DNA from: Saccostrea echinata
Taxonomy: Eukaryota
Direction of reading: 5' to 3'
NCBI RefSeq assembly: GCF_033153115.1
Contig: NW_026889771.1
Location: 4,464,001 to 4,528,000, forward strand
DNA: 64,000 bases
Each line of letters opens with the position of its first letter. The stretch's first letter is position 1. Positions 29,442 to 58,035 of the stretch are shown here, piece by piece. The notes under the pieces are model-generated. The model searched no databases. It was not told where the DNA came from and saw only the letters and a list, made by a program, of their open reading frames with translations. Position numbers and translations under genes: made by a program.

Positions 29442-29620
29442 NNNNNNNNNNNNNNNNNNNNNNNNNNNNNNNNNNNNNNNNNNNNNNNNNNNNNNNNNNN
29501 NNNNNNNNNNNNNNNNNNNNNNNNNNNNNNNNNNNNNNNNNNNNNNNNNNNNNNNNNNNNNNNNNNNNNNNNNNNNNNNNNNNNNNNNNNNNNNNNNNNN
29601 NNNNNNNNNNNNNNNNNNNN
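29442..29620. other. Assembly gap (N run)
   Basis: Run of n. Confidence 1.
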
Positions 29621-33900: not shown

Positions 33901-36900
33901 CAGTCAAAGAGAAACAACTCTAAAAATGTCTTTCCTCCCCTTAGCTGAGTTATTCCTCCTGTTTTCCGAAGAATTATGAGTTTTTTCCCTCACAAATACA
34001 CAGATATATTAAAGATTTTACAGTGTGTTGCAAGGAACACAAGAACTAAAAGCCAAAGTTTATACAAATTAAAGTAAGTATCAACAGTTTAAAATTATTT
34101 ACTGAAATTAATACAACGGTTGCATCCCACTGAGAAAATCTTTTACTGTAAACAGTATCAGTTCGCATTTCCTCGAATAAAAACAAAACGATTGATACCA
34201 ATGTAGATGATACCATTGTAGATGATTAACATGAAAAATTTTAATACTGATAAATAATTTACAATTTGGTACGATTGAAGTTAACATGGACAAATACATC
34301 ATTTCCATTCCATTCATTGAAACAACAGGAGGATACAATATCCGAGGGGGGTGGGGGCACCCCTCTCGTTTGAAAACAGAAATAATTTAAAACCTAAATG
34401 TACATATATTCCATTTTCATCACAAGAGAGTTGTACATACACCACTGTTGGTTCACTTAAAAAATAATATTCAATGCAAGTAGGTCATATAAAGGTTTGA
34501 AACTGCACCTGTGTGCATGAACTCCAAACCGGACACGTGGTCATAAAATCCTTAGAAAAATGGTTTTACTAAATATAAATACAAAAAAAAAAAAATAGTA
34601 CTTAGAATAAAAAAATATTAGTATATAGTCAATATCTAATCTGTATACACGAATAAAGGACATTACTTTAGGAGTTCAATATGCCAATTATATTTATCAT
34701 GCAGACGTAACCGATGTTTTTTTTTTTCCAAGATACTGCATTGCAGAGAAGAATGGAGGGGGGGGGGGGGGTTTTAAAATTGAAGAAATTGCTTATTCAT
34801 CTTCATTTAAATGCAGATGTAAAGTTTTATATTTGTGATAAATATAATGTACATTACATTTTTTAAGTAAAATATTCTTTCCAGCTATAGGAATTTTTAT
34901 TTGTATTTGTAGAATCATAGCATTGTTTTCGTCCCAAGTCTGAAAGACGCTGTGAGAAATGTAACTTACGGAGAGAGGGGGGGTAGATTTTCCGCTATAA
35001 ATTCAAAACGCGTTGTTTAAAAAATTTTCAAAAAATTATCAAGAACATTTTGATCATCAGTTACAAGAAGTAATAATTTTTTTCAAAATTAAACGACAGA
35101 TTTTTTCATAAAAAAATATTTCATTTGAAAATCACGCATTTTTCAATGCAAAAATGAACCATAGTTTTTCAGTTTAAATTCTTCAAAATCGTTTTTCTCG
35201 AAGTGTACCTTTACAAATTCACTTTGTTTGTGTGTTTAATAGTTAAACGAACGATTCAGCAAATTTTGACAGCTAGGCTAACCTCAAATATTTTAAAATA
35301 AGGGATTTTATAGTTAGTTTGTTGAATTTTTTTTGTACTCGTGATCAGCCAAAGGGGGGTAACTTTAGGAACTTCCTGTTCAAATTCGGCTTGAACGATT
35401 TTGACCAAAATGTACATACACATAGCAGATATTGTCATGTATAAGATATACAAAAATAGCGAAAATTAAACGACAGGAAATTTTTGGGGTAGGTGTGTTG
35501 TACATCCTTAAGACATCTCGAAATGAAAATTTCCCATTCAAGTTAATTAATAGGCCCGCCTTTGATATATTTTGTTTATTCTAGAAATATAGTGATTTAC
35601 CAGCACATCTGGAAGGGCTCATGGGAGAAGCTAACCTGACCTACGCAAAAGGAGATCACGAGAAAGCCATTTCAATTTGTCTGGACATCATAAGGATGGG
35701 TACTATCTTTGTTCAGCGTACAATGTATTTGAAACCTAACAAATGTATTTTATTTCCTGAAAAATTTGTTAACAATTTTGAAACACTGTACATGTAATGT
35801 TAACTCCCTCCCCCCAAATTTGGAGAATATAATATGTTTCTATAAAGCTCAATCTTAGCAGCTTTTAACTAGAAGTTTGTTATAAATTGGCAGGACTTCA
35901 AGTCATTTAAAAACCCTGAAAGTGAAAAATGCTTTCATGTTTATATAATACTAAAAATTCAAGATTCCTTAAGATTACATGTTACTTCTTTAAAGTTATC
36001 AGGGTTATTTAGAACAGTTCATTGTCAAAAAAGATGAAGCAAAGTTAGGCAGTTTTATAAAATTTATGTTTTACAACACAAGAATTTACCAAAGGGAGCA
36101 TTCAGAATTTTAAGTTTAATAAAGATTTGATATTTTAACCCTCAGTCCAGAGGCAGGCCTGCCTTTTCAGACACTAGACATGATTTATGAAGATTTAATA
36201 CAGATCTGTTATTTACATGTAACTCTAGCTCCAGAGGCACACCTGCCTTTTCAGACACTAGGCATGATTTACGAAGATCAAGGGGATCTCAAGAAATCTC
36301 TGCAGGTTTTCAGTTATTTTTTTTTTTAACTTTATCAACTACAATTTTGAAGGGAGAAAAAGTTAATTTTCTATGAAGGTTAAAAATACAGATTTACTTT
36401 AACTAACATTTATGTAAATGTTGGTGGTTTCACTTTCAGTATAGTTTAATAGCAGCGTACTTGAACCCAGTGGACCGTGACAGCTGGATAAGGTTGGCTG
36501 AGTTGAGTTTGGAACTGGAGGATAAATCGCAGGCTGTCATTTGTTATAGTAAAGGTACTGCGACTTTGTAAAAATATCAGCTTATTTTGAGAGCTCTTAT
36601 TTAAATAATATTAAATTTCAGAGGAAAGTTCCAACAAATTTGTACAGTATTATACTGGAATCACCCCATCTGTCTGTTTGCTGATCAATCTGAATACAAA
36701 GGTTGTTTGTGACGAAAGAGTGTGTAACAACCCTATACCATGGTCATTTGGACAATGTCAAGGTCACAAGGTTTGAAATATGAAATTGTTATCCATTACA
36801 TACTTTTATTATGAAATAATTTCCAAAGATCATATTGCCCTAAGGGTTGATAATGACCATAGGATATGACATGACCCTGATCAAAGGTCATTATGACAAG

Positions 36901-48900: not shown

Positions 48901-50612
48901 ATTCTAATAACTCATGCATTGCCCATAGACTTTAATGTAAAATTCAAAGTGCAATTAATTTGACAATAATAAAAAAAATTTAAATTTCTTTGGTGGAGTA
49001 TTTTTATTTCACAACACTATCAAAATGATACCATAATTACAAATATAGGACCATTCATTTATTAGATACAAAATATGGTCGTTATACATTGAATACCTTA
49101 AATTCAGTATACATTTGTACTTGTACAAAAGAAAAAAAAAGAGTTCTTTGAAAATTCTTCTCTGGAACAAAAAATGTTAGAATTTCTATTCATGAATATT
49201 TAGATGTACTTGCAGTTTAAATTGTGGTTAGCTTAGCTGCTGGCCCCTAGACTATTTACACATATGACAAGGGCAACAGTATTCAGAAAGACCATTTATT
49301 TGTAGTGATAACTTACTAGTGTGTATTGCATTGCTTTATTTTTAGGGTCTTTCCTTTCTTAACAACTACAAAGAGCTGAGGGGAGAGTGCCAGGAGACTT
49401 ATTATAACATCGGGAGAGCCCTACATCAGCTGGGTAGGAAAAATATTTGTTATTTGTTATGTGATGAAGAAGTTTATAGAGGCTTATCTACTGTATACAG
49501 GGTTATTTTTGTTTCGTGTTATTTTTTCCCTTTCACATCTGCAAATAATTTTGCCCTGTTTTAAATTCGCCCAATCACAGTTCAGTTTTAGAAAATTATA
49601 CTGTGTTTTTTGAATTCATCCCGTTTTAAATTCGCCCACCTGTGAGTAGGACGAAAGGGGCAAAATTAAAACGGAGGCAAAAATTTCCCTGTATGCAGTA
49701 TTACAGACAATGTCATTGAAGTGAAAAATTGATAAAATTACAAAGAATTCATTGCAAATTATCATGAAAGAGGAAGGAAAGAAAATCATTAACTCTTCAA
49801 TTTTTGTAAAGAAGAAAATGAAGTGGTTTGTTTGTTTGTTTTTTGATTTGGTGCCTGTTTACTGATGCTGACACTGTAAATTGTATACAGTCAACTTTAT
49901 AATACCGGTACATGTATTTTGATTCTTGTAGGACTGACCTATGCTGCTGTCCATTACTACAAAAAAGGTCTTACATTTCCCCCAATGGTGGAGGATGAGG
50001 AGGTTTGTATATTACACAGAAATTACATTACAATCTTGATATCATTCATGTGCTGTTGGCGGAAATCATTTTTGTCTTATTTAGGCCATCTTTAAAAAAT
50101 TGTTTGTTTGCCCTCTCCCTAGTGACTGGCTAAAAATGGCCCTACACAGAACTTTTTTTAACATCCAAGAAACTTTTTTTTTTATTAATTCAGGAATTTT
50201 TTCCTGTTAACAATACATGTATTTTGATTTTAGGAATACCTTTGATTTTAATATATTTTAAAAATTCAGCATAGATGTTAAATTTTTTCAGGAAAAAATT
50301 TTCCCACCTTGTAGGAATATTGTTCATATTTTGTGATTTGCAATAAGAATTATCTTTCTGTATGTCTTTCAAAACATAGACATAGAAACATTATGTCCCC
50401 AGTAATTGTTGGCACCGTATATTTTTTTTTTAATGTTAAGAACTTTGAGATTAGTATGTTATTAATTTTAATATGATAATTTTTTATTTTTCTTGTAACA
50501 GAATCGGTTTGACCTGACCCGACAGCTAGCTTATAACCTGGTTTTGATCTACAAAACAAGTGGGTCTGAGGCTCTGGCCAGACAAGTTATGCACCAGTAC
50601 CTAGTCATCTGA
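30932..50612 (+). CDS. GTF3C3: General transcription factor IIIC subunit 3 (TFIIIC102, TPR protein), 26 coding exons, 943 aa
   Basis: Exons 30932-31099, 31955-32201, 32478-32675, 33347-33360, 35585-35699, 36229-36305, 36440-36554, 37483-37658, 38848-38935, 39214-39272, 39609-39721, 39916-40003, 40678-40824, 41677-41857, 43404-43432, 43535-43664, 44804-44875, 45493-45545, 45922-46026, 46334-46420, 46563-46661, 46924-46999, 47621-47745, 49346-49433, 49932-50002, 50502-50612; phase-consistent (2832 nt). Motifs YL.GKISF.EF, GLMGEAN, PFQTLGMIYEDQGD, GDLYLDVAEAY, RFCLR, NGHNA, CQETYYNIGRALHQLG, AYNL.LIY. Confidence 0.95.
31282..31751. mobile_element. 470-bp near-perfect palindromic MITE with 5-bp TSD (TTTAA) in GTF3C3 intron 1
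   Basis: CAGGTC(C/T)AGTCCAAAGACTATTT... arms of ~230 bp around a short loop near 31510; TTTAA on both flanks. Confidence 0.85.
32950..33110. mobile_element. Tc1/pogo-type MITE (CAGT...ACTG, TA TSD)
   Basis: TA|CAGTCAAACCTCACTATCTCGAAC...GTTCAAGATACTGAAGTTCAACTG|TA. Confidence 0.75.
33390..35507. mobile_element. Non-autonomous Kolobok-like DNA transposon (~2.1 kb)
   Basis: TTAA TSD (33386-33389, 35508-35511); TIR AGACGTACAACACAC / GTGTGTTGTACATCC; purine-purine termini; no coding capacity seen. Confidence 0.8.
36144..36203 (+). repeat. Partial duplicate of the GTF3C3 exon-6 5' end upstream of the true acceptor
   Basis: ag|tccagaggcaggcctgccttttcagacactagacatgatttatgaagat versus exon ctccagaggcacacctgccttttcagacactaggcatgatttacgaagat. 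Confidence 0.9.
37753..38568 (+). mobile_element. Non-autonomous Helentron (HINE) with ~170-bp tandem repeats
   Basis: TTTTAAGCTCACCTGA 5' end, (GTT)n, internal repeats, 3' CTCAGGTGAGC plus GGCCCATGAGCC hairpin and TCTTGTT. Confidence 0.85.
39997..40250 (+). repeat. ~56-68-bp tandem repeat x4 carrying copies of the GTF3C3 exon-12 donor
   Basis: TGGCACAG|GTAATATAT with GT at 40004, 40060, 40128, 40190. Confidence 0.9.
41378..41601. mobile_element. PIF/Harbinger MITE, same family as 9612-9831
   Basis: Colinear with 9612-9831; right end CTTAGTCGTAAGTTCTTTTGTAAAAC; CAG flanks. Confidence 0.8.
41956..43220. mobile_element. Non-autonomous Tc1/mariner element with nested MITE (42948-43154)
   Basis: TIRs CGAGGGTTGTTGGAAAAGTT / AACTTTTCTAACAACCCTCG, TA TSD; inner CTGTAAAC...GTTTACAG MITE. 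Confidence 0.85.
43936..44712. mobile_element. Non-autonomous hAT element
   Basis: TIR TAGTGTTGTCAA / TTGACAACACTA; exact 8-bp TSD ATAAAAAG; subterminal GAGTA/TACTCG/AACCG repeats. Confidence 0.9.
45626..45829. mobile_element. Tc1/mariner-type MITE (degenerate)
   Basis: TA|CTGTGGATC...GATTTACAG|TA. Confidence 0.6.
46487..46560. repeat. 24-bp tandem repeat x3 abutting the GTF3C3 exon-21 acceptor
   Basis: GAGTAATTTATTGTGTTATTTTGT units. Confidence 0.85.
47762..49255 (+). mobile_element. Old Helentron/HINE-like element with degenerate internal repeats
   Basis: TTATTAGCTCAC start; degenerate repeats resembling those in 37753-38568; 3' end approximate. Confidence 0.5.
49491..49698. mobile_element. 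Tc1/mariner-type MITE
   Basis: TA|CTGTATACAGGG...CCCTGTATGCAG|TA with internal TTTAAATTCGCCC repeats. Confidence 0.75.
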
Positions 50613-50966: not shown

Positions 50967-52959
50967 AGAAATCATTTTATTGTGTTGGCCTACAGTAATT
51001 TGTTTAGTCAATGAAGCTTAATTGATATTGCAGTGAAAAACGGTGGTAATATTGGAAACACAACAGCAGTTAAGATAACTTTGGAACACATCGTCACTTA
51101 CAGATTCTTCCAGCAGCGCTTCTACAAGCTATGAAGTAGAAATTGACCGATATGGAACTTGCATAAATGTTGAGAAATGAATTGCACAGATCAGATTAAA
51201 TTCTGATTGGATGAGCTGTGACCTTGACCTCACTGTGTGTGCAGGGTAAATATGAGATTGACAGCAAAAGTGGAGAGAAACCGTAGACGTATCGTTTGAG
51301 TGTTCACGAGTTGTATCAATTTTGTTAGATTACCATAGAAGTTTAAGCTGTATAAGATTTCTGATCTCTTTTTAGGACACAGTCTGAAAAGTTAAGGGAT
51401 GGTGTTACTAATTAAGTAATCTCCCTTCCCCCTTCCTTAGAGAATTGAATAATAAGATTACATTTTTAAGGATTAATAACAGAGTAAGAAATACATGTAA
51501 ATCGAGTTGCTTAGAAAATATTGATATAGCTTCTTGGATGTCATGACATCATTGTTTTCAAATGCAACACAGACTGAAGAATTAGGGTTGACCAATAAAA
51601 TCTGCAAGAATGCTTCTATGTTTGCTTTCTAATTTGAGTTCTATCACTTCCATGCAAGTAAAATACAGTATAAATATGTGTATTGGATGTGCAGTTGCAG
51701 ATCAAATCTTATGAATTAAAAAAATACAGAACTCGATTCAAAATTAGGTAAGTTAAAGGAGACATATAATACAAGACAGGAATAAACACAGTCGGTTCCA
51801 CAAGCGTCTACACAAACGGACAGAAACGCATATAAACCAATCATTATTTCGTAAGTAGCTTTATTAATTTGGAAATAAAATATAAATTTCTGATTAATGA
51901 CTTTTTTTTTTTGGTAGGCAAGCAGATATTACATTTTGAAGCACAGGAAACTTTATGAGGGAGATATTTGTTTTCTGAATGTAACAACCGATAAAACGAG
52001 ATTCTAATTTGGGCTGAATTGAAAGCATTTTTAAAAAATCGATGAATTACTTTAACGTGGTTGCAGAAGTCCAAACAGTGTGTCGGTGTTTTATTGGATA
52101 GTTTTTTCAACCAATCAAGAACATCTTTAGTGGAAGAAAGTTAGATTTTAACATTTATTTACTGAACAAAATATTTAACAAATTATAAACTGAAATCCGG
52201 GAGATGTTGGACACTTACAGAAAAACGTGTATCATTCATTGCAATCATTGCTATGAAATTCATCGAAATTTATCTCACCCTAGCTTTGTATTTATTCTGA
52301 ATCTGTGTGGAAATCACACATTTCCTCCGTTATATCGGAGCTATTTAGTACAGCATGAGCGTATCCAACTTCCATCACTCTAAGTACTGTAGTATTAAAT
52401 TTCCTCATGTTGATTTACGTTTTAAAAAAAATACTGATAGTTCTTTTCGTTGAATTTTGAACGCTCTTTTGCTGCAATTTCACTTTTTTTTCCAAGAACG
52501 GAAATGATAAAGCCTCAGATTTATTGATGTCAGTCAAATATCTTGAAGTGTATGAATCCTCCTTGTCGCCCTTGATGGATTTTAGCATGTTATATAGCAA
52601 AACAATAAAATGTTTATGAATAATTCGTCAAATGTCCATCGATCGAACTGTTCGTTTTTTCTTTTCCTTTTTTTTAAATCAAAAATGCCTCTATAACAGA
52701 AACTTTTTGATGTGCGCCAAGAAGCGAGAGAGTGTACTTTTGGAGAAAGGTCGATTCAAAGGCGAGGACCTACTTGTGACGTATTTACTTCCGTAGATTC
52801 TACTGATATACTCGATGAATTGTATTTGTGTAGTCTATTCCATTACTTGCTTACTGAACAGGAGTTTATTAACACGAGGCGAGAAAAGAAAGAGCGCTTA
52901 ACGCTGAAGGGAAAACTAAAAGTCGCTAATGGGCTAGTCACTATAACTTCAAAATCACG

Positions 52960-53152
52960 TTCGATATATAATACTTGTTGATGCCAGCTCGCAAACGCTG
53001 GTTAGGAGCGAACGTTTTGTTCTCTGTTGTATAACGCGAAAGTGTGAGAACCAGAGGTTTTGAAGCGCATGGATGATGAATTGGTATCGCAATTAATTAG
53101 GAAATGCCCTGAATCGATTAGCTAAATAATCGCTGGATACTACAGGTTTCCC
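52960..53152 (+). promoter_or_regulatory. Putative TATA box and 5' leader with an 18-aa uORF (53069-53125) of the KCNE-like gene
   Basis: TATATAA near 52965, CpG-richer surroundings, TGACGT at ~52777; uORF MDDELVSQLIRKCPESIS*. Confidence 0.4.
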
Positions 53153-54065
53153 ATGGGTAAGGACAAGAGATAGCTGTTCTTTTTAGTAAGTTACGATTTA
53201 ATGCTTTAATTTGTTGCTAAATTAAGCATTTATTTTATGTTGAGTAGTCTAAAAATTCTTAAATCCTAATCTTAAAGTATAAATTCCTGGAATTTCTATT
53301 TAAATCAACCAGATTCAAATTATATAAAACACAACTTTCCTGTACGGAAGATAAAAACGTATATCACTGGAAAGGAAAAAAAAACTAGTTAATTACCAGA
53401 GGACGGCGATTGAAAACCACAAAGACTTTAAAATTAAAGTTTCAGTCTGTTGAACCGCCTGCGTTTTAGTGATTTGTAGAAAATCTGTTTTCATAAAAGG
53501 TATATGCAGTGATCTGGACCAGATAGAAATCTCGATATAGTTTTGGATGAGTTGAACATCTATCTGTCAAATCAATATTGACAAGGATTCTTCTGCAGGA
53601 CTTCATCTCAAAAGAAGTCTTCAAGATGAGGAAATCCAATTCATTTCCAAGACAGTGAAGGCAACAAGTGGCAGCATGTTGGCGCTCAATACCAGCGACC
53701 CCAATAGTAATGTGACTCCGTTTGGTGATATTTCTGTGACGTCACAAGAAACAAAGAATGTGGCGGATCTACAGCCTATGAAAAATGACAAAGAAGCTTT
53801 GTTTTATATCATAACAGTATTGATGTTTTACGCTGTAAGTATTGTGATTTTAATGGTGAAGTATTTACGACGGGAAAAGCAGGAGGCTGAGTTTACGAAC
53901 TACTATTATGAATATGTGTCACGTGACAAGTTCCAGGATCCACTGTATCAAAATTCCGTCAATGTACAGAGAACAATGAAGACAGTCAATGGAAGAAGAG
54001 GTAAAATCGTTCCTAGAGAAGACATATTATACCGTCAGTTGGCTTTTTCAGAAACTTGTGTATAG
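53153..54065 (+). CDS. Small single-pass membrane protein, KCNE/MinK-like (156 aa; 129 aa if started at ATG 53676)
   Basis: ATGG|gtaagg (53153-53156) spliced to ctgcag|GA (53599) is in frame with ORF 53655-54065. N-glycosylation sequons NTS and NVT, one TM (ALFYIITVLMFYAVSIVILMV), basic KYLRREK, C-terminal ETCV. Confidence 0.75.
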
Positions 54066-56831
54066 AACAGTCTTTTGAAGTGAGTTGTGTCACTTTTTCA
54101 GACAGAAAGAACCCGTTTTCTGTGTTCGTGTCACAATTATCATCATTTCAGATGTTTCTCGCATAAAGCTACCTGTACATGTAAAGATTCTAATTTGTTT
54201 AAATCATGACCCCCCCCCCCCCCCCCATCGCGGAGCCAGTTCTTGGGAGATCATATTTTTATATCAAAAAACATAGCAAGGAATATAATTATTTAGAGTG
54301 TTCCAAGGTATGTCTGCTGTGTAGCATCATTAAAGATGTAAATAAATATAAGAGTGGTCAGTATTTATTTGCTACTAGTATATCGTAGTTCATGCATTTG
54401 CCTGCATAAAAAAATCAACGGATATAGGAAGACTTTCATAGAATAGCAAAATCATATGAAATGTGACAATTACATAAAAACATGATTCCCCAACCCTCAA
54501 AGCTATAAGGAATAATGATTAGAAAATAGAAATAATTATTATTTAACCAACAATTCCCCAGAGTCATGAATTGAGAGAGATTTCAGTCTGTTGTCAGTTT
54601 AAAAGTAAAAACTTTATATGATGTGCGATCTATTTTGGTATACCAGTCAGGATGTATGCAGGATGTATTTTCATATTATTTAAATTTCAATTTGTTTTGG
54701 TAACTGTATATTATTATTATTATTAATAATAATTTATTAAGTTTTAAAGTACAGTATCATTCGAGCTCATACAGATGTGATATATAAGCTTGTTATAGAA
54801 ACTCTGCTTCTTAAAATTCAAAAGATAAGTTTTGATTTAACCGTTCGAAGTCCTTTTGCAAAAGAGGTCAAAGGTCAAGTGGATTTTCACGCTTTTTTTA
54901 AAGAATATTTTATGACAATCAGCGCATATGCTAAATAGCACAGCTTACCTCTTTATTGTCAAAAAATAATCTGTATGTTGGTTCTATGAATTATTTTGAA
55001 AAATATATCAAAAGGTCAAGTTCAAAGGCCACGAGGTGGGTAACCTTGATATTTTGCAATAGCCATAGTAGCAAGTTATGTATGTGCAAAATATTATACC
55101 ATACCTCATACAGTTCTCAAGATATAGGGTGTTACAGACGGATGGACAGACTCCGGGTAAAGTGATCCCTTAGTGTCGCTCTGCTCTGCAGGCGACACAA
55201 TAATTAACTTGAGGACCGTTCAGTTGAGCGATGTAACCCCCCCTTTTTTTTGTTTTAGATTTTAGTGAACAAGTGTTTACACTATTACCGGTATTAAATT
55301 TTTCTAGATATTAATTTTACAATTCTGCTCCTGAAAATAATGTCCTTAAGCATGTTGAGTAGAGGAGATCAGGCTTTCACAGATGTATTTTCAATAAATG
55401 ACCAATGAATCCTCACCATTTTTATGTCTTTTCTCAGTCAGGAGTCACAAATGAAGGCTTAGCCAGAAAAGGACATGAGCACTCATTTTCTAACCCACTT
55501 CGTCTAAACCAGTAGAGCTGGAGACTCCTCAGAGATTTATGATTTATCTCCTCTACTGTACATATAGGGTATTCGGATGTTTCTGTCGAGTATTAGGACT
55601 CCCCCTAGGTCGATGTTCTTGTCTTATTTGTCATACAATAATTCCGCTGCAATGTAACACATCAAAACCAAAAAAAAATAAAAAGAAATTATATATATTC
55701 GTAACCAAAAAAAATATTAATAAAATAAAATAATTTTGATAAAAAAAATCTGTTTTTACGCAGAAATTACCGTCCTGACACCCTGACATTGGTTATTTAA
55801 ACCAATTTTGTGAACCAGTTACTTTCTTTATAGACAAGAAAGATCAAGTTGATTCAATATACTGTGAAGAAAATTGTGAAAAATGGGGATTGTGGATTGT
55901 AGTCAATTTAAAAAAAATATATATTTGGAAGCATTTTATGGACTGTACATGTATAGGTATTAGTTTTCGTTTGACAATCAGAGAGAAGATGGATAGAGAA
56001 AGGGATGGTTATTAAGGGAGAAGGAATATTCTGAGAGAAAGTCGATTTTCGGAGACAAGTTTGCGTTTGTTTGATCAATAACCAAATAAACCCACTGTTG
56101 CCCATGATTTAAACGACAACATAAGAGCCCTTTGCCATGCCATATACAAGTTCCCCTATCATACAACGATGCACGCATGTTATTCGACGCCATATATGGC
56201 TGGTTTATTTACTTATGTAAAGATACGTCATGTTAATCGATTATAATCGGAAAACGAAAGAAAAACTATTTCCTTCAATAGCAATCAAATTATCGTAGTG
56301 GAAGGATGTTATTTTTCTTCTTCTTTTTTGTTTATTATTATCTCGCGTAATTTGAATTGAAATTTATAGATTGACTCAAAGCTGATATGCGAACAAATTA
56401 AAAGAAATGAAAAAAAACAAAAAACAAATTGAACTATTGAAGCAAACAAACAAATTACTTACGGGCTACCAGTATATAGGACTAAATCAGTTTATAGGGG
56501 TGGGGGTGGATTCCCCCGAAAAGAAATACTGAAGGCCAGTTTAAGAAGGTTTGATTGAAGCTTGGTGTTTCACTTGAAGTCAAAGCGAAAATACTGGTGA
56601 TTTGACACTTTCATAATAAAACATGAATCTTACTGTTGAATAAACGTAGCTTGAAGCTTCTGACTCTGAATTCGCCGCTAAAATAATATCTTACAGTTGT
56701 GGTAGAACTAATGTACGTTTTTGCGTCTTATGTTGGTACCGATTTTCCTGCTTGCAGCAGTTGATCGAAATATTAGAATTTGTCAGTTTTACATACTGAA
56801 CTTACTTATGCTTTTGTGTTTTGCGATCGAA

Positions 56832-58035
56832 AACAATAGGCTTATGGGGCACACAGCTCACCTGACATTGTATTAGCTTTATGCCAATTAAGCAATGAAG
56901 CCACACCATCTACTGTCGCCAAATTGCGGAAGAAGCACCCTTGCTCATCATAACCATGCACTTAGTGTGTCTGCTAAATACCAGGAGCAGAGAGTAAGAA
57001 AAAGATTAAGATGTTTTTAACGTACTAATGTTTTTTCACTTAGGAGGTATATGTATAGATTTACAAATTTTGTTTTCTTTCCCTTTTTAAGGTTTATGAA
57101 TATTTTCAACCATACTTTACGAGCATTTCCTCCAGTTAGAAAGTATTAAAAAGATACTAAAATATACGCATTTGTAAAACAATTTTCTATAGTGTTGAAA
57201 AGTTCAGCAGAAGAAACTGCGTTGTTGGTTTTATGTAAATTATACAGTTTATACACTAGGGAATTACATACAGAGTGACGTAATGATTGAAATTAAGTTT
57301 TTGATTTATATGAAAATCAAGTATTTCTCAGTTTCGACGTTTTACAGAATTTTGTTATAAACATGCAAATTGGGAATTATTAAGTTTTGATTTGCTTTTG
57401 TTTGCTGTGTAAACATAAACTTAAATTTTGTTTTATCAATTTTTAAATCATTAGGTTCTGTGGACACCACTTTTTGATTTCTTCATAATCAGAACTTTGT
57501 TCTGTTTCTTTACGTTGCAAATAATAAATTACAAATAATAAACATGCCGAGAAGCATCATTCCCAAAATTATCTACGTGTATATATGAGTGATTGACATG
57601 TAACGGAAAGTCATTAATTGATACATTATAGAGACAAGGAAAGACCAAAATCGATCGACCCTTGTAGCACACCTGTTATATCAGGTAAACATCTAATAGA
57701 ACATGTACCAAATTTTACACATATGATTCTGTACAAACGAAAACTGAAGCTTTTATTCTTTATTACTTTTGTTTCCCTCCTGGAGGTTCTTGATATCTAT
57801 AACATATACCACTATATTTTCATTATTTCTTAATCACCTCCCCTGAAAGAGTGAAAAGATATTTATTTGAAATCCGGGATCACCTTCAAGTATATCTTTG
57901 AGGAAAATTTGCTTGAAATTGTCCCAGTGCTTCTGGATAAGACACGATAAGTGCACAGACAACACTCGACATATCGATGGATGCTTGACAAACTTCAATC
58001 AGAAAAGATCACAAGAAATGGCTCAGGTGAGTTAA
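56832..58035 (-). mobile_element. Degraded Helentron/HINE element containing a LINE fragment
   Basis: Ends AACAATAGGCTTATGGGGC..AGCTCACCTGA and GGCTCAGGTGAGTTAA. Confidence 0.6.
57300..57760 (-). mobile_element. Degraded non-LTR retrotransposon (CR1/L2-like) reverse-transcriptase fragment
   Basis: Minus strand reads GVLQGSI..G.....INDFP (cf. [21 protein letters not shown]) and, further on, KKWC..N.M, with frameshifts. Confidence 0.6.

Follow-up and report, generated by a model that had tools for sequence, protein, structure and literature searches.

The closest known system to the locus described here comprises vertebrate KCNE1-KCNE6 and lamprey KCNE0 (Pfam PF02060; PDB 2k21, 9u7f, 2m0q, 6v01). 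The MPS-1 to MPS-4 proteins of Caenorhabditis elegans are described as nematode-specific. Canonical KCNE genes are stated to be absent from invertebrates (PMC11659587, 2024), as they are in the accessible part of a later paper (PMC13516689, 2026). As far as the available text goes, both statements rest on a 2005 ascidian genome survey, and the accessible part of an earlier study (PMC3206303, 2011) presents Ciona as being without a KCNE-like gene. Among the matches listed, the titles and abstracts of the open-access literature describe no mollusc or annelid KCNE, which subscription papers or supplements could hold; the accessible portions of PMC10950684, PMC11148248 and bioRxiv 10.1101/2025.09.21.677649 contain nothing on invertebrate KCNEs. 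Pfam already tags a share of proteins like the present one automatically as ISK_Channel. Here we report an oyster gene whose product we regard as a likely invertebrate KCNE and predict, with somewhat better than even confidence, to be an auxiliary subunit of a Kv channel, most likely of a KCNQ1-type channel of the oyster.

The window analyzed (the whole stretch of DNA, 64 kb long) is AT-rich animal DNA with a GC content of about 0.32, and its longest frame open from stop to stop, 169 aa, lies at 53556-54065 on the forward strand. The transcript structure around this frame was read from the assembled contigs of eight sequencing runs, whose RNA origin is presumed; such an origin agrees with the GT..AG joints and with the bins left empty at 51638-52573 and 55850-56317. 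The 5' leader exon (52859..53185, forward strand; the true 5' end may lie elsewhere) has two alternative donors, one following 53156 and the other following 53185, the donor sequences being GTAAGG and GTAAGT. One contig of run X1 covers 52859-53155 and then jumps, joining 53156 to 53500 across a 343-nt GT..AG intron (53157..53499; shorter side 229 letters). One contig of run X5 covers 53010-53186 before the jump and joins 53185 to 53599 across a 413-nt GT..AG intron (53186..53598; shorter side 110 letters), the exact cut being deduced from the two letters between the two sides (53186-AT-53602). Runs X6 and X8 come from a related species; their contigs break off at 53140 and resume at 53503, 50 letters separating the two sides, a length that places their joint nearer the second donor and the first acceptor. 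These joints therefore give two donors and two acceptors, and the contig of run X2 is unspliced across 53405-53770.

The initial annotation had joined 53156 directly to 53599 and started translation at the ATG at 53153..53155 of the forward strand. Both positions are used as splice sites, each paired with another partner (53156/53500 in X1 and 53185/53599 in X5), and the 53156/53599 junction itself is absent from the contigs of the eight runs, from which rare splice forms are not readable. Only this one of the four donor/acceptor pairs sets ATG 53153 in frame, giving a 156-aa form; the other three, including both junctions observed, turn it into an upstream open reading frame (uORF) of 14 or 6 codons, and it was rejected as the main start. 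Among the nine closest homologues, seven (126-127 aa) start at the Met matching 53676 or one residue later, and two (134 aa) start seven residues before it. Because of the junction pairs seen and these homologue starts, the main coding sequence was placed at 53676..54065 on the forward strand, where it encodes 129 aa (P0015) plus the stop. It lies wholly within the last exon. A one-exon coding region behind a spliced 5' leader is the vertebrate KCNE layout, for which PMC5138848 gives indirect backing; 53676-54065 has this layout, and the paralogues at loci L002-L005 are uninterrupted frames as well. A 27-residue N-terminal extension of the 129-aa protein via the upstream exon is possible, and it would parallel KCNE3L and KCNE4L as presented in the available part of PMC5138848. 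In the leader of the X1 form (52859-53675), 10 ATGs lie upstream of the main start and open ORFs of 2-18 codons, which would be expected to damp translation, and the choice among the two donors and two acceptors alters the set of uORFs in the leader.

Four features, all on the forward strand, characterize the 129-aa protein. Two N-glycosylation sequons, N5 and N12 (53688..53717), lie in a short N-terminus predicted to be extracellular. A single transmembrane (TM) helix spans residues 43-61 (53802..53858; Kyte-Doolittle 2.61) and includes the family-invariant Y44 and Y52. A basic juxtamembrane and Tyr-rich cytoplasmic segment follows at residues 62-81 (53859..53918), which phmmer aligns to KCNE1 64-82, and the C-terminus ends in the class-I PDZ-type motif ETCV (54051..54062), identified from the sequence and from family enrichment. 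On hydropathy only, the protein has one TM helix and no cleavable signal peptide, with no hydrophobic leader found (within the first 30 residues the highest mean over 10 residues is 0.8). The lack of a signal peptide, the N-terminal sequons, the single TM helix and the ETCV end had all been pointed out in the initial annotation, and all hold for the 129-aa protein. An AlphaFold2 model (mean pLDDT 73.3, pTM 0.40) contains helices at 34-86 and 89-106, with pLDDT reaching 94-98 over residues 41-60. Foldseek with this model gave no match at E<=0.001, a lone helix being uninformative in such a search, and structure searches of the ESM Atlas returned no usable match.

The gene is under purifying selection, which is strongest in the TM helix and the following 30 residues. 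Compared with a related species' contig (run X7), and counted over the 31 CDS differences listed, the coding sequence carries 24 synonymous and 6 non-synonymous codon changes over about 56 and 217 sites, respectively; within residues 38-93 the differences listed comprise 18 synonymous changes against 1 non-synonymous. A chance ORF was rejected on this synonymous excess and on the homologues found. The exact 129-aa protein is absent from a protein collection of 15 billion sequences.

Multiple searches connect this protein to the KCNE family. The Pfam model ISK_Channel (PF02060), with a curated cut-off of 22.1 bits, is the top match of P0015, at 17.6 bits (E 0.0032) and below that cut-off. It is also the top match for all nine close homologues, two of them over the cut-off. 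Among 30 family members, ISK_Channel matches 18 at E<=1 and the next families 7, and among 108 further representatives it matches 25 at E<=0.002, ten of these reaching or exceeding the cut-off; no other Pfam family matches more than two of the 108 at that threshold. The KCNE family call made in the initial annotation is supported by these results, as ISK_Channel leads in every close homologue and is the sole family recurring across the wider family. A PF02060 search of the oyster genome gave no match, the present gene included, and three of the four paralogues L002-L005 have no ISK_Channel match at all. In the PDB (177,635 sequences), all seven matches of the 154-aa frame P0001 are KCNE1, KCNE2 or KCNE3, at E 0.18-1. 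The best of the 108 representatives, P0175, which shares 60% identity with P0015 across 62 aa, scores 33.7 bits against ISK_Channel (E 3.5e-8) and matches KCNE1 at E 5.6e-6 and KCNE2 at E 0.0085 in the PDB, values that stay significant after multiplying by 108; part of its score comes from an N-terminal stretch without family conservation. KCNEs were the only PDB proteins matched by P0001 and P0175. In the ESM Atlas, where 0.9 is the lead threshold and 4-10 of 100 shuffled proteins attain that score, ISK_Channel is present in 25-40% of the members of the clusters ranked highest for P0013 (score 0.94-0.95). For the paralogue P0018, a chordate KCNE4-named cluster, 93% ISK_Channel, ranks second (score 0.94, 209 of 256 features); SERTM1 (0.84), C10orf105 (0.83) and TMIE (0.77) rank lower. 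Judged on sequence comparison, the family is probably homologous to KCNE; P0015 itself, which misses the Pfam cut-off, is best termed a putative member.

The residue-level comparison reveals where the resemblance lies. The oyster protein is like KCNE1 in size, KCNE1 also having 129 aa, and in its N-terminal sequons, which KCNE1 carries at 5-7 and 26-28. It is like KCNEs in general in having one TM helix, a gapless TM alignment, a Y-x-x-R-x-x-K juxtamembrane pattern and an aromatic cytoplasmic segment. The gapless TM alignment to KCNE3 drawn up in the initial annotation was reproduced by phmmer with 9 of 27 residues identical, but at E = 0.48, and the likeness to KCNE1 proposed for the residues EAL proved to be shifted by one position when phmmer aligned the two proteins. 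On the two sides of the helix the matched KCNE1 positions are Y46, V50, F53, Y65, R67, K70, E72 and Y81. The oyster Y63, R65, K68, E70, Y77, Y80 and V81 align to KCNE1 Y65, R67, K70, E72, F78, Y81 and I82, so that the juxtamembrane pattern Y-x-x-R-x-x-K-x-E and the aromatic segment after it are both present. Across the family, Y63 is conserved in 79%, K/R65 in 97%, K/R68 in 81% and E/D70 in 95%, and Tyr at 76, 77 and 80 in about 50%. The KCNE1 stretches least tolerant of change are 61-73 and 77-82, according to the accessible part of PMC11138074; they align to oyster residues 59-71 and 76-81, within the part with 18 synonymous changes against one non-synonymous. KCNE1 D76, a known gating residue in the same available text (PMC11138074), aligns to Asn75, beside a one-residue gap, and Asp occupies this column in 9% of the family. 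The protein is thus unlike KCNEs in the lack of KCNE1 D76, as it is in its subthreshold Pfam score and in the triplet position, which reads SIV in the oyster protein, FTL in KCNE1 and TVG in KCNE3. A class-I PDZ-type end found across the oyster protein's family may be a further difference from vertebrate KCNEs.

The oyster gene belongs to a large family in molluscs and annelids. A search with the single protein recovered 13 homologues from 18 candidates, one with an 11-row profile recovered 160 from 2,835, and one with a 30-row profile yielded 798 clusters (50% identity) at E<=0.001, whose members were characterized from the best 150 of the 798. Among the matches listed, the named members come from bivalves, gastropods and the annelids Capitella and Owenia, and all of them are labelled 'hypothetical' or 'uncharacterized', none with a functional name. 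They include Mizuhopecten KP79_PYT08188, Capitella CAPTEDRAFT_217913, Owenia CAH1774086, Lottia LOTGIDRAFT_166990 and Aplysia LOC101863595 (E 1e-53 to 1e-14), and the family was also found in Lymnaea, beside Aplysia and Lottia. Feature counts over the 117 representatives new in the 30-row search show one hydrophobic segment in 116 and at least one sequon before the TM helix in 113, the sequon density being 0.040 per residue before the helix versus 0.007 after it. An S/T-x-V/I/L end occurs in 54 of the 117, against 3.9 expected from tail composition, and the same PDZ-type end in 19 of the 28 members of the window protein's subgroup, against 0.8 expected. The tails vary from a few to about 750 residues, the long ones being in gastropods. 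Three long members of 647-871 aa (P0149, P0163 and P0173; gastropod where named) keep the N-terminal core and end in ETKV, and no other Pfam domain was found in them at E<=0.05.

The search of the oyster genome identified at least six family members, and a seventh was judged by eye; two pairs lie in tandem. Paralogues L003 and L004 (contig C10, 3.216 and 3.255 Mb) belong to different groups and lie 39 kb apart on the same strand. On contig C22, at about 14.71 Mb, two single-TM ORFs of 121 and 164 aa (L030:1351-1716 and 2054-2548, reverse strand) stand head to tail, 337 bp apart; the first was matched at E 0.014 and the second recognized by eye, and neither has an ISK_Channel match or an exact copy in the protein collection. 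In a family tree of 49 rows and 76 columns, whose few columns and long branches call for care, the oyster paralogues fall into well-separated groups, several of them starred. Capitella groups with the L002 type and Owenia among sequences of the window-protein type, and the paralogue split is therefore likely, on this tree, to predate the mollusc-annelid divergence.

The potential channel partners were located in the same genome, where three KCNQ loci were found by search, two of KCNQ1 type and one other KCNQ locus, L006, which we take to be of KCNQ2-5 type. The KCNQ1-type S0-S6 exons lie on contig C12 (about 13.66-13.68 Mb) and contig C7 (about 7.59-7.63 Mb). The L007 exon scores best against KCNQ1 (57.9 bits, versus at most 39.3 for KCNQ2-5), and the C12 KCNQ1 protein shares about 60% identity with a close relative of the C7 protein. 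Just downstream of the C7 KCNQ1 exon, a decayed retrotransposon reverse-transcriptase-like fragment was recognized by eye (L026:1994-2251). KCNQ1 residues F123, F127, F130, G272, V324 and V334 are necessary for KCNE modulation, and Ciona KCNQ1, which has Val in place of F127, is resistant to KCNE3, both according to the available part of PMC3206303. We mapped these residues onto the C12 protein (P0345) by pattern, using the vertebrate rows in alignment A6; five of the six (F123, F127, F130, G272 and V334) are retained, and Leu stands at the V324 position. The S1 and S5 residues are likewise present in KCNQ1 of insects and nematodes, so the oyster residues show compatibility, not binding, and they may reflect channel structure instead of KCNE binding.

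By analogy with the known subunits, the protein most likely works like a KCNE. It would adopt an N-out, C-in topology without a signal peptide, its N-terminus being glycosylated, and its helix would lodge in a KCNQ1 tetramer between two of the voltage sensors, against S1, S5 and S6. This docking would shift voltage dependence or kinetics, altering gating or surface delivery, while residues 59-81 would contact the channel inner face and calmodulin and the ETCV tail would anchor the complex on a PDZ scaffold. An auxiliary role on some Kv channel is probable on this analogy, and KCNQ1 as the main partner is put forward more tentatively, a little short of an even chance. A broader scenario, which we regard as evenly balanced, is that KCNE is an ancient bilaterian family, of which a mollusc and annelid radiation of six or more PDZ-tailed members would tune KCNQ1 and other Kv channels; Ciona would have lost its KCNEs and its KCNQ1 drifted at the binding face, which the oyster KCNQ1 kept. 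If the family is KCNE, the subunit that underlies IKs in the heart and K+ recycling in epithelia originated before the protostome-deuterostome split, and molluscan K+ currents gain an unrecognized layer of modulators.

The family could also be truly homologous to KCNE and serve partners other than Kv channels, its members being older single-helix chaperones or modulators of other channels or transporters and potassium-channel gating a vertebrate specialization. The surplus of at least six oyster paralogues in separate groups over the three KCNQ loci found fits this proposal, and the conserved PDZ-type tail together with the very long gastropod tails points to scaffold roles. KCNE effects on TMEM16A have likewise been reported but are disputed, and strong species-specific tuning is described, in the accessible part of PMC13516689. 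The conserved core, however, corresponds to the part of KCNE1 in contact with KCNQ1 and calmodulin, and most of the residues of KCNE sensitivity are retained in the oyster KCNQ1, which leaves a non-Kv partner rather unlikely.

A separate origin, as an independent single-pass family without signal peptide, of the SERTM1, C10orf105, reprimo or TMIE type, would attribute the KCNE likeness to TM composition and the positive-inside rule. Profiles of the family do not recover the solved KCNEs at significant E-values: profile A1 reaches KCNE3 and KCNE1 at E 0.57-1.2, where they rank after two glycoprotein O chains of herpesviruses, A5 reaches KCNE1 at E 0.65, and A4, built from five paralogue groups, has no KCNE among its matches at E<=10. 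Most members also stay below the Pfam cut-off (83 of the 108 have no ISK_Channel match at E<=0.002), and conservation is limited to a short core of about 45 residues, half of it TM. SERTM1 (PF15872), C10orf105 (PF17665), reprimo (PF27763) and TMIE (PF16038), likewise small single-pass proteins, are among the Atlas neighbours at 0.77-0.88, with the SERTM1 and C10orf105 clusters at 0.83-0.88; these scores are lower and under the lead threshold. Against an independent origin, only ISK_Channel recurs out of 24,736 Pfam families, many of them single-TM, P0001 and P0175 single out KCNEs in the PDB, and the match runs through residue-specific positions on either side of the helix. In the 30 members 48 Pfam families were matched; the 25 of them listed include neither MRAP nor reprimo, and SMIM5_18_22 matches two members (best E 0.008). 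SERTM1, C10orf105, reprimo, MRAP, SMIM and TMIE have no Pfam match at E<=0.002 in the 108 members, in a 2025 Pfam copy that may lack PF27763. Membership of MRAP, reprimo or SMIM, which the initial annotation had named as the assignment that would speak against KCNE, was rejected on these Pfam results for the 30 and the 108 members; we consider an independent origin unlikely. A transmembrane adaptor without a channel partner, whose phosphorylated Tyr-rich segment would bind SH2 proteins and whose tail would bind PDZ proteins, is suggested by the Tyr cluster at 76-80, the PDZ-type ends and weak Pfam SIT matches in two homologues (E 0.10-0.12), but these SIT scores are far under the cut-off and the TM helix, with its invariant aromatics suiting intramembrane contact, is more conserved than the tyrosines, making such an adaptor highly improbable.

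We return to the putative KCNE gene for its surroundings. Shared synteny gave no support, as the oyster RCAN gene lies on another contig (C52), a result of little weight either way. Upstream on the same strand is a multi-exon TPR-repeat gene (36407-41880, possibly extending to 51612, where a spliced 3.4-kb contig ends), which presumably resembles GTF3C3. Exons of an immunoglobulin-domain gene lie on the reverse strand at 23328-24555 (Pfam V-set, 26.3 bits), and a forward-strand exon at 10626-10841, with no Pfam match at E<=0.05, resembles what we take to be LMBRD1. Stretches of N occur at 20864-21001 and 29442-29620, far from the gene. Short repeats common to many transcripts, at 50083-50159, 54178-54520 and 56928-56982, show very high summed contig depth and loose ends, and the repeat at 54178-54520 sits just 3' of the stop codon of the gene.
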